Assembly (NCBI GenBank): GCA_015222495.1
Contig: JADFVK010000104.1
Location: 1 to 46,928, forward strand
Source: Pseudomonadota bacterium
Lineage (GTDB): Bacteria; Pseudomonadota; Gammaproteobacteria; GRL18
DNA length: 46,928 nt
Direction: 5' to 3'
Under the pieces are notes generated by a model, which saw nothing but the letters and a program-made list of their open reading frames with translations, made no database searches and had not been told where the DNA came from. Shown one piece after another: positions 1 through 43,338 of this stretch; the first letter of the stretch is position 1; each line of letters starts with the position of its first letter. Position numbers and translations under genes: made by a program.

Positions 1-236
1 AAACGTGGAATAATACCACCACCATAACCGAATACGGAAACAGTACCACCCTTCCACCAACCCATACGAGTTTCATATGAATGCTCTAACTGACCTAAAA
101 GGCCACTCACCATTGAATTGATACGTTCATCCGGATGATCATCTCTCAGACGTTTAATACCACTGATAAAGCTAGGCCATTCGCCACTTTCCAATTCATC
201 TAACATTGGCGTATCATAGATCTTAACTTTTGGCAC
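1..236 (-). CDS. dsrA: Dissimilatory sulfite reductase alpha subunit, oxidative (reverse) type; N-terminal part, truncated by window edge
   Basis: Hand translation from GTG at 236 (RBS AAGGGAG upstream): MPKVKIYDTPMLDELESGEWPSFISGIKRLRDDHPDERINSMVSGLLGQLEHSYETRMGWWKGGTVSVFGYGGGIIPR, matching the rDsrA N-terminus of Allochromatium-type sulfur oxidisers. Not in ORF track. Confidence 0.97.
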   Translation of the reverse strand, partial: MPKVKIYDTPMLDELESGEWPSFISGIKRLRDDHPDERINSMVSGLLGQLEHSYETRMGWWKGGTVSVFGYGGGIIPR

Positions 237-710
237 AGTTTTCTCCCTTAAGGTAAAGTTGGTTCTGCCAACAAAATATCACTTAACTCACTTAAACTTG
301 AGTACTCGTCTTGTTTAAGTAAAAATTTTTAACCTTAAGAAGATACAACAATTCCAAAATTTTCTCAAGGCGCTTGAAAATTAATGAAGTGAATTTTAGG
401 ACTTAATAATAAACTATAATACCCTTCCTTTGGGAGACACCAAGGCATTACTACTATCTACTTATGGGTATATTTATTTCTAAGCTATATTAACATTTAA
501 TAATAATCTAATTATTTCAATTACTTATGACTTATACTTATATTTAACATTAGTATAAGTTTTTTATAGGTATATCGATAAATTTATTTATAATCCTTGA
601 TCTTGATTTTGTCTATTTTTTACAAATGGTATTTCTTAATTCAAACTTCTTGAAATTTTCTAATATAAGTCTTATTTAATACCTATCTATTATTCAAAAC
701 GAAGGTTTTT
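237..710. promoter_or_regulatory. Divergent AT-rich promoter region between dsrA and the accessory dsr block
   Basis: Non-coding, very AT-rich, flanked by divergent starts; several TACYYMT-like heptamers. Confidence 0.6.
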
Positions 711-893
711 ATGTTAATTTTAAGTGAAGTGCTGATTCAGAATCATCAGTTAGAATCTTATGTTGATCTTGTAAAATATATTCAATCCCGGGCAAAAGAG
801 GGAGAAATGTTTTTTGATATCGATATCAAACCACCCTATTCTGATACACCTGATGAATGGGAAACCGATTTAGAAGCAAAATTTACCAGTTAA
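711..893 (+). CDS. Small acidic hypothetical protein (60 aa), dsr-associated
   Basis: RBS GAAGG upstream; motif DIKPPYSDTPDEWE resembles small conserved proteins next to dsr loci (from recall); first gene of the divergent block. Confidence 0.75.
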   Translation: MLILSEVLIQNHQLESYVDLVKYIQSRAKEGEMFFDIDIKPPYSDTPDEWETDLEAKFTS

Positions 894-906
894 TAGCCCT
901 TAGCCA

Positions 907-978
907 AACTTGAAATTTGCCCACCATCTTATTTGGTAACATAAAATACCAAATAAGATGGTGGGCAAATTTTAAGTT
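907..978. repeat. Long inverted repeat: 26-bp perfect stem, extendable to 32 bp with one G-U pair, 8-nt loop
   Basis: 913-938 aaatttgcccaccatcttatttggta is the exact reverse complement of 947-972; loop acataaaa. Confidence 0.95.
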
Positions 979-1002
979 ACTTAGAAGATATTTGAGATTA
1001 AT

Positions 1003-1686
1003 ATGTTTTGGAATGAAGAACAAAAACAACAAACTTTTACTGCACCGGATAACATCATCGATGTTTCTTTTAAAGTCAAATGTAAGCAAATAAGACTTGA
1101 TCATGCATGGCTACTGACCGATGCAGTCATAACTTTATTGCCCTGGTTGCAAAATGAACCTAAGGCATCTATTCAGCATATTTATATACCTCAATCCGGT
1201 AATGGCTGGACCCGTGCAGATAATTTTGAAAATGAAATGATTCAATTATCACGACGAACACGTTTAAAAATTCGTATTCCAAAATCAAAATTGGATAAAC
1301 TACTTTCACTAACTGATAAAACAATCCATATTGACGAACAGCCTCTTAGCTTTGGTCAGGCCGATCAATACCTGCTTAGTACTATGACAACTATTGTATC
1401 ACGCCATGTTCATATTCCTGATACCGATGATGATGAAGAAGCATTTCTTCATCAGGCTCACCAGCAAATTAAGGCCATGGGTGTTAATGTACAAAAAATG
1501 CTATGTGGTAAATCACATCAATTAATGACACCTGATGGTTATATAAAAACAAGAAGCCTGATGATTGCAGATATCACATCAGAAGAGTCTATTTTATTAC
1601 AGGAAAAAGGCATTGGGGATCATTACCTTTATGGTTGTGGTCTTTTTATCCCGCAAAAAGGAATTACAGCTGTCAATAAAGATTAA
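1003..1686 (+). CDS. cas6: Stand-alone Cas6/Cmx6 (MYXAN-type) RAMP-family endoribonuclease homologue
   Basis: N-terminal D-x-x-F...DH-x-x-x-L motif, LSRRTRLKIRIP segment, and C-terminal glycine-rich loop LQEKGIGDHYLYGCGLFIP (G-h-G-x5-G-h-G) diagnostic of Cas6. Confidence 0.85.
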   Translation: MFWNEEQKQQTFTAPDNIIDVSFKVKCKQIRLDHAWLLTDAVITLLPWLQNEPKASIQHIYIPQSGNGWTRADNFENEMIQLSRRTRLKIRIPKSKLDKLLSLTDKTIHIDEQPLSFGQADQYLLSTMTTIVSRHVHIPDTDDDEEAFLHQAHQQIKAMGVNVQKMLCGKSHQLMTPDGYIKTRSLMIADITSEESILLQEKGIGDHYLYGCGLFIPQKGITAVNKD

Positions 1687-1789
1687 CAAATAATTTTTAA
1701 AACTATCTCTTTTGAGAGATACATTTTATTTTTAACTGTTATATCATCTTAGTTTAGATTTTTTATTAGCAAACATTATGGAGACAAGT

Positions 1790-2128
1790 ATGGCGATCAC
1801 TTTTGAAGGTAATGAAATTGAAGTCACTGCAAATGGATATCTGGTCGATATCGCGGACTGGAGTGAAGGTCTTGCAACACAAATGGCAGCTGAAGAAGAT
1901 TTAGAGTTAACAGAAAAGCATTGGGATTTAATTAATTTCCTACGTGATCAATTCATCAATAATGGTGGTAAAGCACCTAATACACGTGCTTTGATAAAAG
2001 AAATGGGCTCTACCTGGGGCGAAAAAATTGGTTCTAAGGACTTATATACCTTGTTTCCCAATGATCCGAGCAAGCAAGGTGGACGTATTTCCGGACTGCC
2101 AGAGAGTAAGCGTAAGGGCGGCTATTAA
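1790..2128 (+). CDS. DsrC/TusE-family protein lacking all cysteines (RspA-like paralogue)
   Basis: DsrC motifs GYLVDIADWSE, LTEKHWDLINFLR, LYTLFP..P.KQ..RISGLP; ends KRKGGY without the C-terminal Cys. ATG at 1790 follows GGAG RBS (ORF track start 1778). Confidence 0.9.
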   Translation: MAITFEGNEIEVTANGYLVDIADWSEGLATQMAAEEDLELTEKHWDLINFLRDQFINNGGKAPNTRALIKEMGSTWGEKIGSKDLYTLFPNDPSKQGGRISGLPESKRKGGY

Positions 2129-2227
2129 ACTTTAACAGCCTGCACTACCCATTATAGATATAGTATATTCAATTTTTCTCATATATATTATGTCCAAGTT
2201 TTAACATATTGTACTATGGAGATTTTA

Positions 2228-2437
2228 ATGAGCACTAAAGCAGAACTAATTCAAGAATTACTTCAAATGCAAAGAGATTTTATTAAGTTTGAGCATGAGA
2301 ATGGTATGCACCCTGATGATTACTATAATCCTGGTGCCGGACATCAGCTGGAAACTTATAAAGATGATTTCATGAATAAGGCTGTAGAAGTCCTTGATAT
2401 GGCTCATGATGAAAAAGATTCTGCCTGGAAGCGTTAA
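2228..2437 (+). CDS. Small hypothetical protein, dsr-associated
   Basis: GGAG RBS before ATG 2228 (track start 2216); followed by a terminator. Confidence 0.7.
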   Translation: MSTKAELIQELLQMQRDFIKFEHENGMHPDDYYNPGAGHQLETYKDDFMNKAVEVLDMAHDEKDSAWKR

Positions 2438-2454
2438 GCTAACAGCAAAATCAT

Positions 2455-2483
2455 AAAAAGGTCGCTTATGCGACCTTTTTTTT
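2455..2483 (+). terminator. Rho-independent terminator
   Basis: aaaaaggtcgc-ttat-gcgacc followed by T8. Confidence 0.9.
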
Positions 2484-2531
2484 GCCTTAAACCTTCTTGA
2501 AAATGTACTCTTTGCCCCTATCTATTAATAC

Positions 2532-3944
2532 ATGCCAATATCTTCTACGCCTTTATTTATCTCTGCTGCCCACAAATCATCCGGTAAAACCACCATTACC
2601 ATTGGCTTATTATCAGCCTTAAAAAGTAGAGGACTAGAGGTACAACCATTTAAAAAAGGTCCTGATTATATTGATCCTCTCTGGCATGGTTGTGCGGCAC
2701 AAACACCCTGTTATACATTAGACTTTAACACCATGTCCGATAATGAAATCCTGCAATTAGTTTCACGCAAGATGGATCATTGTGATATTAGTATTATTGA
2801 AGGTAATAAAGGCTTATACGACGGATTGGATTTAGATGGCAGTAATAGTAATGCAGCCATTGCTAAACTGCTGGGCTCCCCTGTTATCTTAGTGCTGGAT
2901 GCCCGTGGTATGACCCGGGGTATTGCCCCCTTGATTTTAGGCTATCAATCTTTTGATCGGGATATCAATATTGCCGGAGTTATATTAAACCAATTGGGTG
3001 GTTCTCGTCACGAAACCAAGCTGCGCTCTGTTATAGAACACTATACAGATGTGGCTGTTTTAGGTGCTGTGCATAAAAATAAAAGCCTGGAAATCATTGA
3101 ACGTCACCTGGGCTTAATGCCCAGTAATGAAGAAGATGCTGCGCAGAAAAAAACTGCTGATATTGGTAAAATCATATCTTCTCAGGTAGATCTGGACAAA
3201 ATAATTAACATCAGTCAGTTTCCATCAGCAGTACAATTACCTCCTCCTATTATAGCTCATATTAAACCTCAAACAGTACAGAAAACATTACGTGTTGCTA
3301 TCATTAATGATAATGCCTTTGGTTTTTATTACCCCGGAGATCTGGAGGCTCTACAAGCTGCAGGTGCTGAATTAATTGCCGTGAATTCTTTAAGTGATCC
3401 ACAGTTACCAGAAAATATTGATGGTCTCTTTATAGGTGGGGGATTTCCTGAAGAATACTTACAATCCCTGCATAATAATCAATCTTTTAGGAATTCCATC
3501 TATCAGGCTATTGAAAATGGCTTAGCTGTATATGCTGAATGTGGTGGACTGATGTACCTCTGTCGGAATATTCTATGGAAAGATCAAAAGCAAGCAATGG
3601 TGGGTATTATTCCTGCAGATGCACAAATGGAAGAAACACCACAGGGAAGAGGATTAATTCGTTTTAGTGAAACCTCAAAGATGCCCTGGCCTGCTGATAC
3701 AGAGAAGCAAAACTCAAGCGAGGATATTTCTGCTCATGAATTTCACTATTCACATCTTGTTAATATCACTGAACCATTAGAATTTGCATATAAAATTCAT
3801 CGTGGCAGTGGCATAGATGGTCAACATGATGGGATAATATACAAAAATCTTTTAGCTTGCTATGCTCACCTACAAGATACCAGTCAAAACCATTGGGCAA
3901 AACGTTTTATACAATTTATTCATAAGGTCAAAGCAAAGACCTGA
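2532..3944 (+). CDS. dsrN: Siroheme amidase DsrN (cobyrinate a,c-diamide synthase family)
   Basis: SSGKTT P-loop, FKKGPDYID, ERHLGL, GGGFPE, AECGGLMYL, HEFHYS; dsr context and adjacent dsrR. Confidence 0.9.
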   Translation: MPISSTPLFISAAHKSSGKTTITIGLLSALKSRGLEVQPFKKGPDYIDPLWHGCAAQTPCYTLDFNTMSDNEILQLVSRKMDHCDISIIEGNKGLYDGLDLDGSNSNAAIAKLLGSPVILVLDARGMTRGIAPLILGYQSFDRDINIAGVILNQLGGSRHETKLRSVIEHYTDVAVLGAVHKNKSLEIIERHLGLMPSNEEDAAQKKTADIGKIISSQVDLDKIINISQFPSAVQLPPPIIAHIKPQTVQKTLRVAIINDNAFGFYYPGDLEALQAAGAELIAVNSLSDPQLPENIDGLFIGGGFPEEYLQSLHNNQSFRNSIYQAIENGLAVYAECGGLMYLCRNILWKDQKQAMVGIIPADAQMEETPQGRGLIRFSETSKMPWPADTEKQNSSEDISAHEFHYSHLVNITEPLEFAYKIHRGSGIDGQHDGIIYKNLLACYAHLQDTSQNHWAKRFIQFIHKVKAKT

Positions 3945-3984
3945 TCAGTCATCGCAATAAATTTACTAAATAACTAGGATAACA

Positions 3985-4284
3985 ATGATAAAATTAACCG
4001 AAGATGCTGCTGCACAAATTAAATCCAGTGGATCTGATTCCCCATTAAGAGTTGCCGTAACCCAACATGCCAGTCATAATGGTTTCCAGTATTTAATGGG
4101 CTTTGATGAACAAAAAGAAAGCGATAGTCTTTATGAAGTTCGTGACGTCAAAATTATTGTTGCCAATGATTTATTAGATATTCTTAATGGAATGGAAATT
4201 GATTATGTAGAAATAGAAGGTGAAGATAAGCAGTTTATTTTTAAAAATCCCAACGATCCGCACTTTAAATCACCAACAGAATAA
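3985..4284 (+). CDS. dsrR: DsrR, IscA/HesB-like protein without Fe-S cysteines
   Basis: IscA-fold motifs IKLTEDAA, YLMGFD, IDYVE, FIFKNPN; no Cys; directly after dsrN. Confidence 0.85.
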   Translation: MIKLTEDAAAQIKSSGSDSPLRVAVTQHASHNGFQYLMGFDEQKESDSLYEVRDVKIIVANDLLDILNGMEIDYVEIEGEDKQFIFKNPNDPHFKSPTE

Positions 4285-4289
4285 TTTTC

Positions 4290-5909
4290 ATGGCTCTCGA
4301 ACAGATAATAGATTATGTAGACAATGAAGACAAACTTAGTCGGCAACCCATACGCTTAAAATATAGTCGTCTTTTTTTACCTATTATCAGTTTAGGCTGC
4401 CTATTAATTGCCATATCTTTATTAAATTATATTAGTATCAAGCAAATTATTGACAGCCATAGTCTCTTACTATGGCTTAATTTTATTTTTTTACTCTTTG
4501 GTTTATTTATTATCCTCAGGATTTCCTTTTTAATTCGACATGACCTAATCACTCCCTTTATTCATTTGCGTAATTGGTCATTACTGATGAAAAATAAAGA
4601 TTATACGGCACGCCTTCCAATGCCAAAAAAAGGAGAATTTGCCAAACTGGCACTGGATATCAATGGTCTAAGTGACAAGCTTCAGTTGCTATCCGCTGAG
4701 TTCCAACAGGAAGTGGATAAACAAACACATAAAGTAGAAGAAAAAAATCACTCTCTTAATATTCTTTATGAAGTGGCGACTTCTATTAACCAGTCAAAAG
4801 ACCTGAATGATCTATTATCACGTTTTTTACAATTACTCATTAGCCTGACTCATGCTAAAGCCGGTACAGTACGTTTACTCGTTGAAGACCATCCTGCTGG
4901 TGAACAACAGCTAAAAATGGTAGCCTCCTTGGGACTTAATGCAGACTTTATTAAGGAAGAGCTTTATGTGCCGGTTAAACGCTGTCTATGTGGCACATCT
5001 CTGAGCCAGGGAACAGTAGAAAGTGGTATTTCAGTAAGTAATTGCAGCAAACTATCCGGTACTGAGCTATTTACTGGTAGTGATGCAGAGATTATTGCTG
5101 TGCCATTAGAACATCAGGGGACAAATCTGGGTATTTTTAACTTATTTATTGATAAACCTAATGCTCATCAAATTGACGGCTTATCAGAATTATTAACCAG
5201 CATTGGTAAACATCTGGGTATGGCAATTGAAAAATCCCGCCTTGATAAAGATTCTCGACAACATTCCATCATGAAGGAAAGAACCCTTTTAGCTCATGAA
5301 TTACATGATTCTCTGGCTCAAACATTAGCCAGTTTACGCTTTCAGGTATCCATATTAGAAGAAAACATTCTCGAAAATATCACTATTGACCGAGAGGAAG
5401 TCACCCGCTTACATGAAAGTATCGATGAAGCCTATCGAGAAGTACGTGGACTCATTACACATTTTAGAGCTCCAATGGATAAACAGGGCTTAATTCCAGC
5501 AATCGAAAAACTAATATCTGACTTTAAATCTAATTGTGATATTTCAGTTTTCTTTCAGAATGAATGGTCTAATGACTTAAAATCTGAACAGGAATTTCAA
5601 GTCATTAGAATTGTCCAGGAAGCCCTCGCCAATGTACGTAAACATAGTCAGGCTAGAACCATCAGAATCCTGGCTCGTAGTTCCAAAAATTTAAATCAGA
5701 TATTAATTGAAGATGATGGTATTGGCCTAAAAAATCAAAAACTCAGTAATAGTTTAGGTGAACATATCGGTCTCAGTGTTATGGAAGAACGGGCAATTAG
5801 AATTGGTGGTAAAATAACAATTGATGCAGAGACTGGAGAGGGAACTCAAATTCTGTTAACATTCCCGAATCAGATTATCATTGAAAAATCCGTTAAGTTT
5901 TTTCCCTAA
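4290..5909 (+). CDS. NarX-like sensor histidine kinase (2 TM, HAMP, GAF, HisKA_3, HATPase)
   Basis: ERTLLAHELHDSLAQ H-box, QEALANVRKHS N-box, IEDDGIG, GLSVMEERA. Confidence 0.92.
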   Translation: MALEQIIDYVDNEDKLSRQPIRLKYSRLFLPIISLGCLLIAISLLNYISIKQIIDSHSLLLWLNFIFLLFGLFIILRISFLIRHDLITPFIHLRNWSLLMKNKDYTARLPMPKKGEFAKLALDINGLSDKLQLLSAEFQQEVDKQTHKVEEKNHSLNILYEVATSINQSKDLNDLLSRFLQLLISLTHAKAGTVRLLVEDHPAGEQQLKMVASLGLNADFIKEELYVPVKRCLCGTSLSQGTVESGISVSNCSKLSGTELFTGSDAEIIAVPLEHQGTNLGIFNLFIDKPNAHQIDGLSELLTSIGKHLGMAIEKSRLDKDSRQHSIMKERTLLAHELHDSLAQTLASLRFQVSILEENILENITIDREEVTRLHESIDEAYREVRGLITHFRAPMDKQGLIPAIEKLISDFKSNCDISVFFQNEWSNDLKSEQEFQVIRIVQEALANVRKHSQARTIRILARSSKNLNQILIEDDGIGLKNQKLSNSLGEHIGLSVMEERAIRIGGKITIDAETGEGTQILLTFPNQIIIEKSVKFFP

Positions 5910-5970
5910 ACCTTAATATATCAGTTAATGATAATTAATTTTAACCTAGAATAACAAATAAGATAAATAT

Positions 5971-6627
5971 ATGCGCGTATTATTAATAGATGATCACACA
6001 CTATTTCGTGCCGGCCTGCAGGGCTTGCTCGAGCGAATGGGTATTGAAGTAGTAGCCAGTGCCGGTAGTGGTCAGGAAGGCTTAAAAATAGTCAGTGAAA
6101 AAAAACCTGATGTGATATTACTGGATATGCGCATGCCTGATATGGATGGCATCGAAGTATTAAAAAGCCTGCGCGAACAAGGCGAAAAAATGCCTATTGC
6201 CATTTTAACAACAGTTGATGATGAAAGTGATTTAATTGAGGCATTACAATGTGGTGCACAAGGCTTTTTACTTAAAGGAATGCAGCCAGATGAATTAGTC
6301 ACTGCACTACAAGACATCCATGCAGGTAAAACAGTGGTTGCACCTGATCTCACGCCCATTTTAGCCAAAGTTGTTCAGGGACATTCTTTACCAGAGCCAG
6401 AACCCAGTCCATTTTCTGAATTAACACCAAGAGAGACTGAAATTTTAGATTTACTGGCCGAAGGACAAAGTAATAAGGTGATTGCACGTAACCTTGAAAT
6501 TTCTGATGGTACGGTAAAATTACATGTTAAAGCAATTTTGAGAAAACTAAATATACATTCCCGAGTAGAAGCTGCTGTTATGGCCGTACAACATGGCCTT
6601 CTCAAAAAAAATCTCTCTAAAAAATAA
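5971..6627 (+). CDS. NarL/LuxR-family response regulator
   Basis: IDDH, LLDMRMP receiver; LTPRETEILDLLAEGQSNKVIARNLEISDGTVKLHV HTH. Confidence 0.95.
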   Translation: MRVLLIDDHTLFRAGLQGLLERMGIEVVASAGSGQEGLKIVSEKKPDVILLDMRMPDMDGIEVLKSLREQGEKMPIAILTTVDDESDLIEALQCGAQGFLLKGMQPDELVTALQDIHAGKTVVAPDLTPILAKVVQGHSLPEPEPSPFSELTPRETEILDLLAEGQSNKVIARNLEISDGTVKLHVKAILRKLNIHSRVEAAVMAVQHGLLKKNLSKK

Positions 6628-6670
6628 ATCACCTTAAAAAATATATTAAGATTAGGACCATAGAATACTT

Positions 6671-9160
6671 ATGACAAAGTGTAAATCAATAGAAGACTTA
6701 ACTAACCTACCTCCATTAGGAATGGACTCTGCATCTCTAACAGAGAGCTTTAAGGGACATTATAGCCACACTCTGGGTAGAGACAAAAGTTGTGAGTCAA
6801 GCCATTATCCTTATAAAGCATTAGCATTTACTTTGCGTGATCGTCTGATGGAACGCTGGAGAAATACTCACTATGCCTATGAGGATAGTGATTGTAAGCG
6901 TACTTATTATCTTTCTCTAGAGTTTTTAATGGGGAGAGCACTCAGCAATGCTACACTAAACCTGGATTTGAATGAGGCAGTCAGAGAATCATTTCACAAT
7001 ATGGGCTTGAAACTGGAAGTACTGGTTGAAACCGAGCAGGATGCCGGCTTGGGTAATGGTGGTTTAGGCCGCTTAGCCGCCTGCTTTTTGGATAGTTGTG
7101 CTACCTTACAACTTCCGGTTAAAGGTTATGGGTTGCGCTATGAGTACGGCATGTTCAAACAAAGAATTAACGATGGCTGGCAGGTAGAAGATACCGATCA
7201 CTGGCTACTCGATGGCAACCCCTGGGAAATAGAACGTCCTGAATACACACAACGTATAAAGTTTGGTGGGCATACAGAATATTATCATAATCATGCAAGT
7301 GATACTAAAGTTCACTGGGTAGACACTCGTGATGTTTTAGCTGTACCTTATGATACACCCATTCCAGGTTTTAAAAATGGTACTGTAAACACCTTACGCC
7401 TGTGGAAAGCGGCGGCGACTGATGAGTTTGATCTGGATGAATTTAATTCCGGTAGTTATACAGAAGCCGTTGCAGACAAAAACTCAGCTGAACACATCAC
7501 TATGGTTTTATACCCTAATGATGCCAGTGAAAATGGTAAAGAATTACGCCTGCGCCAGCAATATTTTTTAGCCTCTGCCAGTTTGCAGGATGTTATTCGG
7601 GAATGGCTAGTAAAGCATGATGATTTCAGTAATTTTGCTGAAAAAAATTGCTTCCAGCTCAATGATACACATCCGACTATCTCCATTGCTGAATTTATGC
7701 GCTTATTGATGGATGAGCATGATTTAAGCTGGGATGATGCATGGGCAATTACTGGTAAAACGATGGCCTATACCAATCATACTTTACTGCCTGAGGCATT
7801 AGAAAAGTGGTCTGTACCCTTATTTGAATCATTACTACCCCGCTTACTGCAAATCATTTATGAAATCAATGCCCGTTTTCTAAAACAAGTTGCCATGCAC
7901 TGGCCTGGTGATACCAATCGCCTGCAGCAGATGTCTATTATTGAAGATGGCCCTGTATCTCATGTGCGTATGGCTTATCTGGCTATTGTCGGAAGCTTTT
8001 CAGTTAATGGTGTTGCAGCCCTGCATACAGAATTATTAAAAAAAGGTCTGTTTTATAATTTTTATCAATTATGGCCGGAGAAATTTAATAATAAAACCAA
8101 TGGTGTTACACCAAGACGCTGGTTAGCTGGATGTAATCCTGAATTACGTAAATTAATTACAGCGACTATTGGTGATCAATGGATTACTGATTTAGCTCAA
8201 TTAAAGAAGTTAGAAACACATTTAGATGATAAAGAGTTTCGCACACAGTGGAAAAAAATTAGAAAAATCAGCAAGACCAAACTGGCTGAATTAGTAAAAA
8301 CACAATGCCAGGTTGATTTTAACACCAGTGCTCTATTTGATGTTCAGGTAAAACGAATTCATGAATATAAAAGACAATTATTAAATATTTTACATGTAAT
8401 TCATTTATATAATCGTATCAAGGCCGGTGATACTAAAAACTGGGCAAACCGCTGTGTTTTAATTGGTGGTAAAGCAGCTCCCGGTTATGCCATGGCAAAA
8501 TTAATTATTAAATTAATTAATAATGTCGCAGAAGTGGTTAATAACGATCCCGATGTCGGCCCACGACTTAAAGTTGCTTTCTTTCCTAATTATAATGTCT
8601 CTGCTATGGAAGTGATTTGCCCGGGCACCGATCTTTCCGAGCAAATATCAACCGCAGGAAAAGAAGCCTCCGGTACTGGTAATATGAAGTTTATGATGAA
8701 TGGTGCGCTCACTATTGGAACCTTGGATGGGGCAAATATTGAAATCAGAGAAGAGCTTGGCAATAAAAACTTTTTCTTATTTGGTTTAACTGCTGATGAA
8801 GTGGAGCAATCTCGAGGACGATACGATCCGAACTATATAATTAATCATGATAAGGACTTGTCTAATGTCCTGGATATTATTAATTCTGGTTACTTTAATC
8901 CCTTTGAGCCTAATTTATTTAGTGATATTGTCAACTCCATCAGAGATCCACATGATCCCTGGATGACAGCTGCAGACTTTCATTCTTATATCAAAGCTCA
9001 GGAACAGGCATCAAAAGTCTGGAAAAATAAAGAACGCTGGACCAGTATGAGTATTATGAATACTCTCTGTAGCGGTAAGTTTTCAACTGATAGAACGATG
9101 CATGATTATAATAGGGATATCTGGAAGTTAGATACCATAAAAGCTTATCCCGTGAAGTAA
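6671..9160 (+). CDS. glgP: Glycogen/starch phosphorylase
   Basis: GNGGLGRLAACFLDS, QLNDTHP, KRIHEYKRQ, EASGTGNMKF PLP-lysine motif. Confidence 0.98.
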   Translation: MTKCKSIEDLTNLPPLGMDSASLTESFKGHYSHTLGRDKSCESSHYPYKALAFTLRDRLMERWRNTHYAYEDSDCKRTYYLSLEFLMGRALSNATLNLDLNEAVRESFHNMGLKLEVLVETEQDAGLGNGGLGRLAACFLDSCATLQLPVKGYGLRYEYGMFKQRINDGWQVEDTDHWLLDGNPWEIERPEYTQRIKFGGHTEYYHNHASDTKVHWVDTRDVLAVPYDTPIPGFKNGTVNTLRLWKAAATDEFDLDEFNSGSYTEAVADKNSAEHITMVLYPNDASENGKELRLRQQYFLASASLQDVIREWLVKHDDFSNFAEKNCFQLNDTHPTISIAEFMRLLMDEHDLSWDDAWAITGKTMAYTNHTLLPEALEKWSVPLFESLLPRLLQIIYEINARFLKQVAMHWPGDTNRLQQMSIIEDGPVSHVRMAYLAIVGSFSVNGVAALHTELLKKGLFYNFYQLWPEKFNNKTNGVTPRRWLAGCNPELRKLITATIGDQWITDLAQLKKLETHLDDKEFRTQWKKIRKISKTKLAELVKTQCQVDFNTSALFDVQVKRIHEYKRQLLNILHVIHLYNRIKAGDTKNWANRCVLIGGKAAPGYAMAKLIIKLINNVAEVVNNDPDVGPRLKVAFFPNYNVSAMEVICPGTDLSEQISTAGKEASGTGNMKFMMNGALTIGTLDGANIEIREELGNKNFFLFGLTADEVEQSRGRYDPNYIINHDKDLSNVLDIINSGYFNPFEPNLFSDIVNSIRDPHDPWMTAADFHSYIKAQEQASKVWKNKERWTSMSIMNTLCSGKFSTDRTMHDYNRDIWKLDTIKAYPVK

Positions 9161-26090: not shown

Positions 26091-26663
26091 TTACTTAGCA
26101 ACAGGTGCTTGTGGAGCAACTGGAGCCTGAGCTGACCATTGCTTCATTCTTTCTTCATAAGCTTGACGAGCTGCTTGCATTTTAGCTTGTTGCTGCTTTT
26201 GCATTTCCTGCATTCTTTTCTGCTGTGCTTCAAAACGAGCTTTCGCTTCTGGGCTTGGTGCCATAGGAGCCATCATTTGAGGAGCAGCCATAGGTGCTTG
26301 TGGAGCATAACCATAAGGACCACTATTATTCATGTAGCGGTTATCACCATAGCTTTGAAGGCGATTATCCCAGTTATTGTAACCATTACCAGAAAAATTA
26401 CTATTACCTGAACCGCGAGTATTTCCTTTACCACGACCACGACCCTTTGCCTTAATTGTGATTTCTACATCACCATCCATGTCTGCATCACCTGAACCAT
26501 CACCCCAACCATTACCATAACCATTGCCATAAGCATTGTTATTCATGTTGTTGTAACCACCACCATTCCAGTTTGTGTTACTATTTCCATCATCCCAAAA
26601 TGCGTTGGCTGACATAGAAACTGTAGTAGCGGCGATTGCTGCAGCGATTAATAATTTTTTCAT
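26091..26663 (-). CDS. Sulfur globule protein-like secreted protein
   Basis: Sec signal ending ANA-FW; G/N/Y/W-rich region, GRGRG, YGYAP, then P/A/Q/M-rich and coiled-coil tail; no Cys; GGAG RBS. Confidence 0.7.
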   Translation of the reverse strand: MKKLLIAAAIAATTVSMSANAFWDDGNSNTNWNGGGYNNMNNNAYGNGYGNGWGDGSGDADMDGDVEITIKAKGRGRGKGNTRGSGNSNFSGNGYNNWDNRLQSYGDNRYMNNSGPYGYAPQAPMAAPQMMAPMAPSPEAKARFEAQQKRMQEMQKQQQAKMQAARQAYEERMKQWSAQAPVAPQAPVAK

Positions 26664-36873: not shown

Positions 36874-37572
36874 TTAGCTTAATTTTTTCTGTAGTTCGGC
36901 TTTATCAAACCACCAGTTGCCATCACCAATAATTGCACCAACAACCATGCCCATACGGGGTAAAAATACATCGGGATCTCTCAAATCCATTTTATCCATC
37001 CATACATCCAGGCCCACCTGTGTTTCTACCTTGCTATGACGTAGGGCTACTTTAGCCAGCATATTTGTCGTCAATACTTTTAAATCATCACGTGTTTTAC
37101 CCTCACTACGCTGATCTACAATAAAGTGCGCGGTAATGGCAGCCAGGGCAGCACCGTCAGCGTCATCAGTGGTTTCATTAATGATATAATTAAGCATATT
37201 AATACTATATTCAGGCTCTAATGGATAAGTGACTGATAACCAGACACCATGACCAAGAGCTGTAATAGAAGATGGGAGTTCTGTCTGGTAAAGCAAATCA
37301 CAGGCTTCAACTGCCAGTTGCCATTCTTCATGGGCAATACAGATATCAAAGGCCGCTTTGGCATGATTCCATACATCACTCATCTGAGTCATACCCAATT
37401 CAGCATTAGCTAAATCTAATAAGGCCTTGGCTCTTTCCATAGGAGCTACCACTGAGGGTAAGTTATCAAGTTTCTCAGTTAATTCAGTCACTTTTGCAGC
37501 AAGAAATTCACGTGATTCCTTGGCATCTGATGTTTCAATAAAATCTTGTTTTATAGTATTTTCTTCGCTCAT
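36874..37572 (-). CDS. Hypothetical helical (TPR-like) protein
   Basis: 232-aa ORF, GGAG RBS, alpha-helical pattern, WWFD near C-terminus. Confidence 0.8.
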   Translation of the reverse strand: MSEENTIKQDFIETSDAKESREFLAAKVTELTEKLDNLPSVVAPMERAKALLDLANAELGMTQMSDVWNHAKAAFDICIAHEEWQLAVEACDLLYQTELPSSITALGHGVWLSVTYPLEPEYSINMLNYIINETTDDADGAALAAITAHFIVDQRSEGKTRDDLKVLTTNMLAKVALRHSKVETQVGLDVWMDKMDLRDPDVFLPRMGMVVGAIIGDGNWWFDKAELQKKLS

Positions 37573-42192: not shown

Positions 42193-43338
42193 ATGTACGG
42201 TTCAAATAGTTCAATCTCCAGTTTGCTCGGTGCTTACCATATGGCCGAAATGTCAATGCGCTATAGCAACTTTATACCGCGTGCTTATAATCTGGCAAAA
42301 TCTTTGGGATTTCAACCCGGCAGAATTATGCCTTCCAGGGCATTCTGTTCTGATGAAAGCCAGGGCTACCCCATTATATTAATAGCCAAACATTTTAGTA
42401 CTTTTCCATTTAACCATGGTCTTGTAGGTGGTATTGTTGCCACAGACAGGCATGCACCTCATGCTCACCATGGCAAAGATTTAGTTATCATTCAAGCCAG
42501 CCATGTGGGTTACGACCCTGTCAATGAACAGTTTGGTGTCTATCGTAGATTACAAACTCATGATGCTTGTGAAACATCTAACTGCGGAAAAATATCCGCA
42601 GCCCTTGAGTGGTATCTACACGAGTATGAATTTGCCAGTCAGAATATATTTCTGACTAAAATTGATAATAAAATCAAGGTAAGCATTGATAATTACTTGC
42701 TACACTCTGAACGAGATGAAGGTTTAATATTAAATCTGGAAAAAATAGTGCAAGTAAATGAACAGGGAAAATCAATACCTGAACTATCTAAAAGTACTAC
42801 AAAAATTTTTTCTGCGGCACCTGCTTTAGTTGCTCATTTTGATACGAGTCAATTAAAAGATGGTCAAAGTATTGCTATTGGTAAGCAATTACACCCAGAG
42901 CTTTTTTATTTTAAAAGAACTATCAGTAATCATCATGAAGGTCGTGATCATTTAGAAATGAATCTAATTAATGTAATGCCCTATATCGTCACATCTCAAT
43001 GGCCTGCTTTAACTGCAGCTCAGGCCAATACACAGGTTGAATTTGACCGGACATTTAGAACGATTATTCAGGAACCTACCTATAAAGATAAAAATATCTT
43101 ATTTATTTCTGGTTTAAATGTCGATATTTCACCACGGGAAGGACAGGTTTTTCCATTAACAAAATTCATACCCTGGGCTGCCTATGTACAGGATAAAAAT
43201 GGTCATCAACAAACCTGGGAACAGGAAGAAATTTATAGCAAACTTGTTGAACAATCCATAGAAAATCCAGATCAGGTAGATTTAGAAACAGCCATTGGAA
43301 TCATGGAAAGTGAAAAAGAAATTCAACTGCCTTTTTAA
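42193..43338 (+). CDS. Hypothetical protein, putative LCIB/theta-type carbonic anhydrase-like
   Basis: C52-S-D-E, SH104VG, C131G motif order matches the Cys-His-Cys zinc site of the LCIB family; CDS itself is clear, function inferred. Confidence 0.6.
   Translation: MYGSNSSISSLLGAYHMAEMSMRYSNFIPRAYNLAKSLGFQPGRIMPSRAFCSDESQGYPIILIAKHFSTFPFNHGLVGGIVATDRHAPHAHHGKDLVIIQASHVGYDPVNEQFGVYRRLQTHDACETSNCGKISAALEWYLHEYEFASQNIFLTKIDNKIKVSIDNYLLHSERDEGLILNLEKIVQVNEQGKSIPELSKSTTKIFSAAPALVAHFDTSQLKDGQSIAIGKQLHPELFYFKRTISNHHEGRDHLEMNLINVMPYIVTSQWPALTAAQANTQVEFDRTFRTIIQEPTYKDKNILFISGLNVDISPREGQVFPLTKFIPWAAYVQDKNGHQQTWEQEEIYSKLVEQSIENPDQVDLETAIGIMESEKEIQLPF

Follow-up and report, generated by a model that had tools for sequence, protein, structure and literature searches.

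What is a Cas6 protein doing among sulfur-oxidation genes? The question is raised by a stretch of 46,928 nucleotides (hereafter, the window) from contig JADFVK010000104.1 of assembly GCA_015222495.1 (Gammaproteobacteria, GRL18; labelled contig C4 in our analysis). In this window, an open reading frame (ORF) for a 227-amino-acid (aa) Cas6/Cmx6-family protein lies between a small ORF (orfA) and a DsrC paralogue, divergent from dsrA, with coordinates and strands as claimed in an earlier note on this DNA. We hold with high confidence that this cas6 is a part of the Gammaproteobacterial reverse dissimilatory sulfite reductase (reverse-Dsr) system that is independent of CRISPR (clustered and regularly interspaced short palindromic repeats). 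Exaptation is well supported: the note's proposal that the protein was recruited to the dsr system and is not an immune component draws strong support from co-occurrence, synteny, the tree, selection, and the persistence of the gene in closed genomes that have no cas1. Profile search and structure prediction, both suggested as checks, found the Cmx6 family and the double RNA-recognition-motif (RRM) fold of repeat-associated mysterious proteins (RAMP). The protein scored 187.1 bits against PF09559 (cut-off 26.7; E 4.3e-55) and 107.2 bits against TIGR02807 Cas6/Cmx6 (cut-off 98.85). Its predicted model (mean predicted local distance difference test score [pLDDT] 87.4) has the double-RRM fold; its nearest match is the Cas6 in the Cascade of a type I-B CRISPR-associated transposon (CAST; 8FCU/8FCJ, Foldseek template-modelling score 0.74–0.76), with a Z of 24.8 and a root-mean-square deviation of 2.3 over 199 residues in the fold comparison to type I-B Cas6 (next best Z 15.9). 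Caspase-1 rows (E about 0.002) were dismissed as chance, since what the fold searches recover are RAMP and RRM folds.

Across the class, this gene goes with dsrA. Profile searches of 401 genomes sampled evenly across Gammaproteobacteria found PF09559 in 126 and dsrA in 126, with both in 121, a single gene in 5 + 5, and neither in 270; because these genomes are related, no P value is attached to the co-occurrence. A single Cas6 is as faithful a reverse-Dsr marker in the class as dsrA itself. Among the genomes with Cas6 only, G069 has a true WYL-cas6-cas3-cas8b-cas1-cas2 operon, G320 encodes a protein with only 26% identity to that of the window (this point and one of the counts depend on that genome, which is unpublished), and in G160 and G190 the block lies where a contig ends; G450 was rejected as a case of Cas6 without dsr, given that its dsr contig begins inside dsrH, an assembly gap. 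Among those with dsrA only, the gene is at a contig end in G177 and G308, G259 and G381 are assemblies of 470–580 contigs, and G444, with 100% completeness in 10 contigs, is missing cas6, orfA, the DsrC paralogue (recognized by its C-terminal RKGGY), and dsrH all at once. Two 1.1-Mb genomes retain the whole block beside dsrA. One family has dispersed cas6, orfA, and the paralogue in three genomes, each of which still keeps all of them, and cas6 was kept far from dsr in 3/3. In one family (L118, L119, L120; G329, G175, G450) cas6 has left the dsr cluster and stands head to head with rnc-era (the RNase III operon) in 3/3 genomes, probably one shared rearrangement. PF09559 matched 0/40 dsrA-bearing genomes of other classes of the same phylum, showing that reverse Dsr does not always need Cas6. 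No relative was present among 78 pattern matches in viral contigs, and a weak search of 7996 longer candidates returned no Cas6 fusion.

CRISPR partners are missing around the gene. The statement that the 47 kb hold no cas1/2/3/5/7/8 and no array was borne out by an array search and by a scan of 43 of the 48 window ORFs of at least 100 aa, in which no cas family besides Cas6 was found (four overlapping opposite-strand ORFs and one edge ORF fall outside the scan). In the host genome (2.28 Mb, 301 contigs, 76% complete), neither a cas1 match nor a repeat-spacer array turned up; the sole repeats found were tandem coding-type units, and PF09559 is single copy there. Cas3, cas5, cas7, and cas8 were not found in the window or among the recurrent neighbours of 80 loci, and PF01905 matched 0/24 genomes, a weak test given that in control L123 it failed to detect the gene in the Cas7 position as well. 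An array scan of the fetched dsr loci found none, while the same scan detected the arrays of two CRISPR control plasmid loci. Among 50 genomes hosting the gene, cas1 was not found in 29; among 24 near-complete host genomes it was not found in 11, including 6 of the 16 in a single contig. Some cas1 match exists in the other 21/50 and 13/24.

Relatives were collected by a species-genome scan (at least 589 among the 599 pattern matches listed), of which we retained the best 80. A quick tree with 75 dsr-linked proteins and 44 of CRISPR type has one branch that separates the two groups (Shimodaira–Hasegawa-like approximate likelihood ratio test 98); CRISPR context was observed only for L082, L083, L085, and the query locus L123, and the other rows are CRISPR-type by similarity, among them L084, which lies apart from any annotated cas gene. 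Supported Cas6 splits were compatible with the DsrAB tree in 29/31 cases (130 loci; shuffled mean 0.33), a congruence that shows vertical descent and not co-evolution. The median ratio of nonsynonymous to synonymous substitution rates (dN/dS) of Cas6 is 0.11 over 23 overlapping close pairs, indicating purifying selection. On the phylogenetic check proposed earlier, for a dsr-linked clade that tracks dsrAB also in CRISPR-less genomes, these trees and the closed genomes that keep the gene without cas1 speak in favour. The dsr-linked proteins share with type I-B (I-MYXAN) Cas6/Cmx6 a profile family, the double-RRM fold, the helix-1 His, a Gly loop ending in GCG, and 22–26% identity. They differ in that they form a separate branch without cas3/5/7/8, cas1/2, or an array nearby, are acidic, have a decayed Gly-loop RRK and an inserted NGWxR, and are inherited with dsrAB. 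The deepest-branching dsr-linked Cas6 (L216, genome G712), a possible intermediate form, has no GW in the NGWxR insertion, a DsrC paralogue directly 3′, and no orfA nearby. On a Gloeobacter morelensis plasmid, a Cmx6-annotated gene (L084:8977–9768) has no annotated cas neighbours and stands in a run with PAPS-reductase-family and cupin genes, possibly a second, independent Cas6 exaptation.

The arrangement of the window, to which we now turn, is as follows.

3–236, minus strand: 5′ part of dsrA, the gene for oxidative dissimilatory sulfite reductase alpha (TIGR02064, E 1.4e-24), truncated by the contig start.
455–470, no strand: palindromic DNA box TATCCC-N4-GGGATA in the divergent dsrA/orfA promoter region (second-best profile match in window positions 1–6700).
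711–893, plus strand: orfA, conserved acidic 60-aa protein (no Pfam family, no fold match).
1003–1686, plus strand: Cas6/Cmx6-family protein of the dsr-linked clade, 227 aa (PF09559, TIGR02807, structure model).
1704–1719, no strand: second copy of the palindromic box, 5′ of the DsrC paralogue (best profile match in window positions 1–6700).
1790–2128 (alternative start 1778), plus strand: cysteine-free DsrC-family paralogue with the invariant RKGGY end (PF04358, TIGR03342).
2228–2437 (alternative start 2216), plus strand: orfB, a conserved protein of 69 aa that belongs to no known family (ORF list, Pfam search).
2455–2480, plus strand: intrinsic-terminator-like hairpin of 11 pairs, scoring on both strands.
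2532–4284, plus strand: CobB-like amidase, likely the siroheme amidase DsrN, followed by an IscA-like protein (profile matches).
4290–6627, plus strand: NarX/NarQ-like kinase and NarL-like regulator (profile matches).
36874–37572, minus strand: displaced homologue of a 240-aa unknown protein (43% identity, E 2e-41).

The IscA-like gene 3′ of the amidase is presumably DsrR. The terminator-like hairpin at 2455–2480 corresponds to the terminator that had been placed at the end of the block. The remaining dsr genes of the host (dsrBEFHCMKL) are on a separate contig, C67, and its TauD-like gene is displaced to contig C128 and still kept. The role of DsrN is taken from PMC3368242. In many other genomes, the homologue of the 240-aa protein sits between orfA and cas6.

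Synteny was compared over 49 distinct loci from the best 80, each with at least 4 kb upstream and at least 1.5 kb downstream and chosen by protein similarity alone. The genes found within 4 kb of cas6 were dsrA and orfA (46 loci each), the DsrC paralogue (45), a TauD-like Fe/2-oxoglutarate oxygenase (38), orfB (35), and the 240-aa unknown (15). DsrA is on the opposite strand to cas6 in 131/131 roomy loci with both genes, in a set where 80 of 180 loci were fetched because dsrA and cas6 shared a contig. Outside the class and without Cas6, the TauD-like gene was present in 5/5 dsrA genomes tested, orfA follows it in 3/4 loci with a dsrABEFH operon, and the RKGGY paralogue occurs in 3/40 dsrA genomes. 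Because the TauD-orfA pair is found next to dsr in classes from which Cas6 is missing, gene content indicates that the pair is the older companion and that Cas6 was added within Gammaproteobacteria. The TauD-like oxygenase (L234:1891–2766) has an intact HxD...H triad, and the pair is divergent from dsrA beyond Gammaproteobacteria as well (L237, L239, L240). Conversely, Cas6 occurs without the TauD-like gene in 2/5 tested genomes and without the DsrC paralogue in six. The TauD-like protein, orfA, and the paralogue are therefore not obligate partners of Cas6. The orfA model (pLDDT 90) had no Foldseek match, and its median dN/dS is 0.05; an Atlas label of 'sulfur relay protein DsrC' for orfA clusters was rejected as lacking Pfam support. 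In three families, DUF6967, by profile search not an orfA homologue, replaces orfA directly 5′ of cas6 (L131:9444–9830, L133:10661–10942, L134:10173–10388).

The DsrC paralogue at 1790–2128 has no Cys anywhere and ends in KRKGGY. RKGGY is invariant in 76/76 aligned paralogues (a set selected on a GG[YF] end), and an RKGGY paralogue was found by pattern in 69/80 genomes. According to the accessible part of PMC8477390, DsrC carriers have one or two conserved C-terminal cysteines; the paralogue, with no cysteine, cannot carry sulfur on them. It shares PF04358 and TIGR03342 with the DsrC/TusE/RspA family, but with an RKGGY end and neither C-terminal cysteine it is no DsrC/TusE sulfur carrier (PMC8477390). 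This protein with its basic tail may instead bind DsrAB by imitating the DsrC arm without being active itself.

The palindromic box TATCCC-N4-GGGATA was present in 120/149 dsrA upstream regions (2.45 in shuffles). It also stands before orfB in 70/102 cases and before cas6 in only 8/172 (looser threshold, no shuffle control). In dsrA promoters, the order is the box, about 17 bases, a CACCCC-N4-GGTAGG-like box, and a -10-like CTAGACT. The box is likely a transcription-factor site, and the copy at 1704–1719 would likely be the paralogue's own promoter. We take it to resemble NarL boxes, and the NarX/NarL-like pair at 4290–6627 is a candidate reader. As a hairpin for Cas6 the palindrome was rejected: it is usually imperfect and sits upstream of the conserved -10-like element. 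The region 711–2483, treated as one block by the earlier note, is probably not one transcription unit, in view of the dsrA-type box before the DsrC paralogue and of the differing responses of its likely A. vinosum orthologues.

These responses come from A. vinosum, where Alvin_1248 is listed as Cas6-related (PMC11267869 Table S2). It is very likely the orthologue of the window Cas6, based on annotation, position, and a gene order like that of A. palmeri (L066), a comparison made without sequence; the same gene order assigns Alvin_1250 to orfA and Alvin_1249 to the 240-aa gene. The texts searched give Alvin_1248 no function. In the 2013 sulfur-versus-sulfide data, as tabulated in the accessible part of PMC11267869, Alvin_1248 was 12.5-fold up (P 0.009), Alvin_1249 6.3-fold (P 0.002), and Alvin_1250 17.7-fold (P 0.002). 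The dsrA-P genes were down 3–11-fold (dsrA 0.24, B 0.17, E 0.09, F 0.15, C 0.16). The A. palmeri RKGGY paralogue adjoins a SufS-like gene, pointing to Alvin_1508, which tracks dsrAB (0.13, 0.27; PMC11267869). Since Alvin_1248–1250 rise while dsr and Alvin_1508 fall, these tabulated values indicate that the cas6 operon is expressed, that it responds to which sulfur compound is supplied, and that its control is separate from that of dsrAB and of the paralogue. For another DsrC-family paralogue, Alvin_0345, the table gives a 106-fold rise on sulfur relative to sulfide (P 0.095; PMC11267869 Table S2).

What the protein does within the dsr system is less certain. Cas6 hallmarks are a catalytic His, a positively charged cleft for the stem-loop with its groove-binding element and beta-hairpin, and a Gly loop (GhGxxxxxGhG) that includes one or more Arg/Lys; the reverse face bears a second basic groove, and in TtCas6A the first-helix His is catalytic (PMC3902920, Niewoehner et al., accessible part). 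Of the glycine-rich loop and N-terminal His that the earlier note pointed out, the His is intact and the loop only in part. D33-H34 is present, and a D/E-H motif occurs in 151/172 dsr-clade relatives; the equivalence of His34 to the catalytic His derives from an alignment within PF09559, and 8FCJ has Asn at this position. The loop, GIG-DHYLY-GCG, keeps its glycines, as does that of the dsr clade, and fails the Cas6 definition by having no Arg/Lys, of which 149/165 dsr-clade relatives have at least one. Family-specific features of the window protein are an N-terminal MxW and a SGNGWxR insertion, NGWxR being present in 168/172 dsr-clade and 0/123 CRISPR-type proteins. New near-invariant residues are W3, W48, N67-G68-W69-x-R71, R85, R134, E145, K165, G169, R184, and K219; R85, R91, R71, R134, R184, K219, W3, and W69 are conserved at 86–99%. 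Arg, Lys, and Trp are the residue types that usually contact RNA. Because these residues arose while the basic residues that bind stem-loops decayed, the alignment argues that the scaffold has been re-specified, not merely relaxed.

We give slightly less than even weight to a role as an RNA-level regulator of sulfur-oxidation transcripts, favoured because the His, the fold, and the new Arg/Trp set are under selection and because the operon is up and dsr mRNA down in one of two conditions. A type I-B (Cmx6) Cas6, inherited with the reverse-Dsr genes and with no CRISPR partner, would still act on RNA as a separately induced regulator. Through a remodelled, non-repeat surface it would bind, and possibly cut, sulfur-oxidation transcripts, tuning dsr down when sulfur instead of sulfide is the substrate; its origin would lie in one early capture, close to where the class began. 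The fuller form of this proposal is more tentative: one domestication near the base of Gammaproteobacteria made a ribonuclease or RNA-binding switch with a new non-repeat signal, which together with the cysteine-free DsrC mimic would throttle Dsr upon a change of sulfur source.

Several results weigh against an action on RNA. No cis-acting target emerged: word and palindrome enrichment in non-coding regions returned only DNA promoter motifs and gene ends, no conserved hairpin or word was found in 13 non-coding region classes, no synonymous-site constraint in 13 genes, and no Rfam match in six sources (0 matches), and I-B-like repeat units matched at best 24 of 36–37 positions, equal to reversed controls. 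Synonymous-site peaks were discarded as Ser codon-family inheritance and AT-rich starts. Stable hairpins do occur at dsrA-dsrB (mean z -1.9) and dsrC-dsrM (-2.95); sharing no loop or stem sequence, they were read as generic terminators or stabilisers and rejected as a Cas6 target. The surface that would bind a stem-loop likewise appears to have decayed. Three basic Gly-loop residues are present in 5/165 dsr-clade versus 120/123 CRISPR-type Cmx6 proteins (the latter a narrower set, which inflates its conservation), and the window protein keeps none; the basic loop is also seen in three cyanobacterial proteins and 8FCJ. The median isoelectric point (pI) is 5.9 in the dsr clade (9/172 above 8; window protein 6.3) versus 9.5 in CRISPR-type Cmx6 (114/123 above 8). 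The groove-binding element has become an acidic loop without conserved basic residues, and the Arg/Lys of the beta-hairpin are not conserved. The claim that the protein binds or processes stem-loops of dsr mRNA or small RNA thus finds no conserved RNA element and an apparently decayed basic surface. As to expression, some of the dsr changes on sulfur have P values above 0.05, and on pyrite versus sulfide Alvin_1248–1250 are flat (0.9–1.1; Alvin_1248 1.1) while dsrAB is down 22–26-fold (PMC11267869, accessible part), so that the inverse relation of the cas6 operon and dsr is not general. Finally, the rate of Cas6 evolution covaries with that of the TauD-like protein (0.55, the highest among 55 pairs, and 0.36 in a second set) and of the DsrC paralogue (0.25, and 0.42 in the second set) instead of core Dsr (near zero with DsrB/E/F/H/C/M in the second set).

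The last observations favour the alternative that survives best, which we rate only a little lower: Cas6 would have left RNA and serve at the protein level as a DsrAB accessory (adaptor, assembly, or repair) with the TauD-like protein, orfA, and the cysteine-free DsrC mimic. An acidic surface and lost stem-loop contacts fit this role, as do the cofactor-maturation genes that adjoin in the window and the low-confidence modelling, in the monomer, of the invariant segments MxW, SGNGWxR, and C-terminal HKGI, as binding-induced folds often show. Fast-evolving genes, however, covary for trivial reasons (TauD-PKHD 0.46), the putative catalytic His and the Gly loop are retained, and no neighbour is obligate, given that the TauD-like gene, orfA, and the paralogue occur without Cas6 and Cas6 without the TauD-like gene or the paralogue. 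Mutual information between proteins placed no Cas6 pair clear of background (top z 4.0–6.9, the top score at a terminal, lineage-patterned column), at a depth of about 100–130 effective sequences that is too low to exclude binding; 3/4 known Dsr pairs reached z 7.2–9.6.

That the fold instead uses its Arg cluster and conserved His/Cys residues to bind a small anionic ligand or cofactor (e.g., siroheme or its amide, a nucleotide, or a metal) as carrier or sensor is, in our judgement, improbable. The invariant Arg cluster on an otherwise acidic protein, the conservation of H34, H58, H61, H218, and C212 in the dsr clade, and the DsrN-like amidase and IscA-like genes directly 3′ in the window would suit such a role. 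But CRISPR-type Cmx6 proteins conserve H34 and C212 as well, so that these residues require no new role, and adjacency to the amidase is typical of the close kin of the host genome and not of the whole clade. Processing of a distant CRISPR array, or a decaying remnant carried along with dsr, is largely refuted and very improbable: the 76% completeness of the host genome and the cas1 matches in some hosts leave it some room, against which stand retention in closed genomes without cas1 and, in 3/3 genomes of one family, far from dsr, a single DsrAB-congruent copy with dN/dS about 0.1, and co-loss with orfA, the paralogue, and dsrH in G444.

Regulation at the RNA level, if true, would make a Cas protein a standing regulator of central energy metabolism. 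Either outcome is informative, yielding a new RNA specificity on a Cas6 scaffold or a RAMP fold gone from RNA. Described Cas exaptations include CAST, type IV, Streptomyces I-E with a STAND NTPase, and HRAMP, likewise CRISPR components outside adaptive immunity and often array-less (PMC8730458). Those are multi-subunit RAMP modules with mobile-element or defence roles, whereas the dsr-linked Cas6 is one gene in an energy-metabolism cluster; the accessible part of PMC8730458 includes no single-Cas6, energy-metabolism case. The beneficiaries of known Cas exaptations are transposons, plasmids, viruses, or defence. Our literature search found no description of a dsr-linked Cas6; subscription papers on the A. 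vinosum transcriptome and dsr regulation, which lie outside that search, may mention Alvin_1248–1250. Its fidelity as a marker and its survival in 1.1-Mb genomes argue that this Cas6 has a genuine function in a pathway of global importance, most of whose accessory genes lack an explanation, and the automatic 'CRISPR-associated' label hides these genes from sulfur biochemists and inflates CRISPR counts. Given that dsr mutants exist in A. vinosum (PMC3368242, accessible part), this species permits a direct test of the role of Cas6 (Alvin_1248) in sulfur oxidation.

Elsewhere in the window, a sulfur globule protein is encoded at 26091–26663 (minus strand; PF17228, E 1.8e-7), and a 381-aa protein at 42193–43338 (plus strand) has a weak LCIB-type beta carbonic anhydrase match (PF18599, E 2.9e-4, below cut-off). 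Other recurrent unknowns near dsr loci (window 36874–37572, L236) are 240-aa acidic, DUF6866, 183-aa, 65-aa, and 375-aa proteins. Sel1-repeat proteins and PKHD-type and other 2-oxoglutarate-Fe(II) oxygenases also recur around dsr loci, and several of all these genes are kept elsewhere in the host genome.

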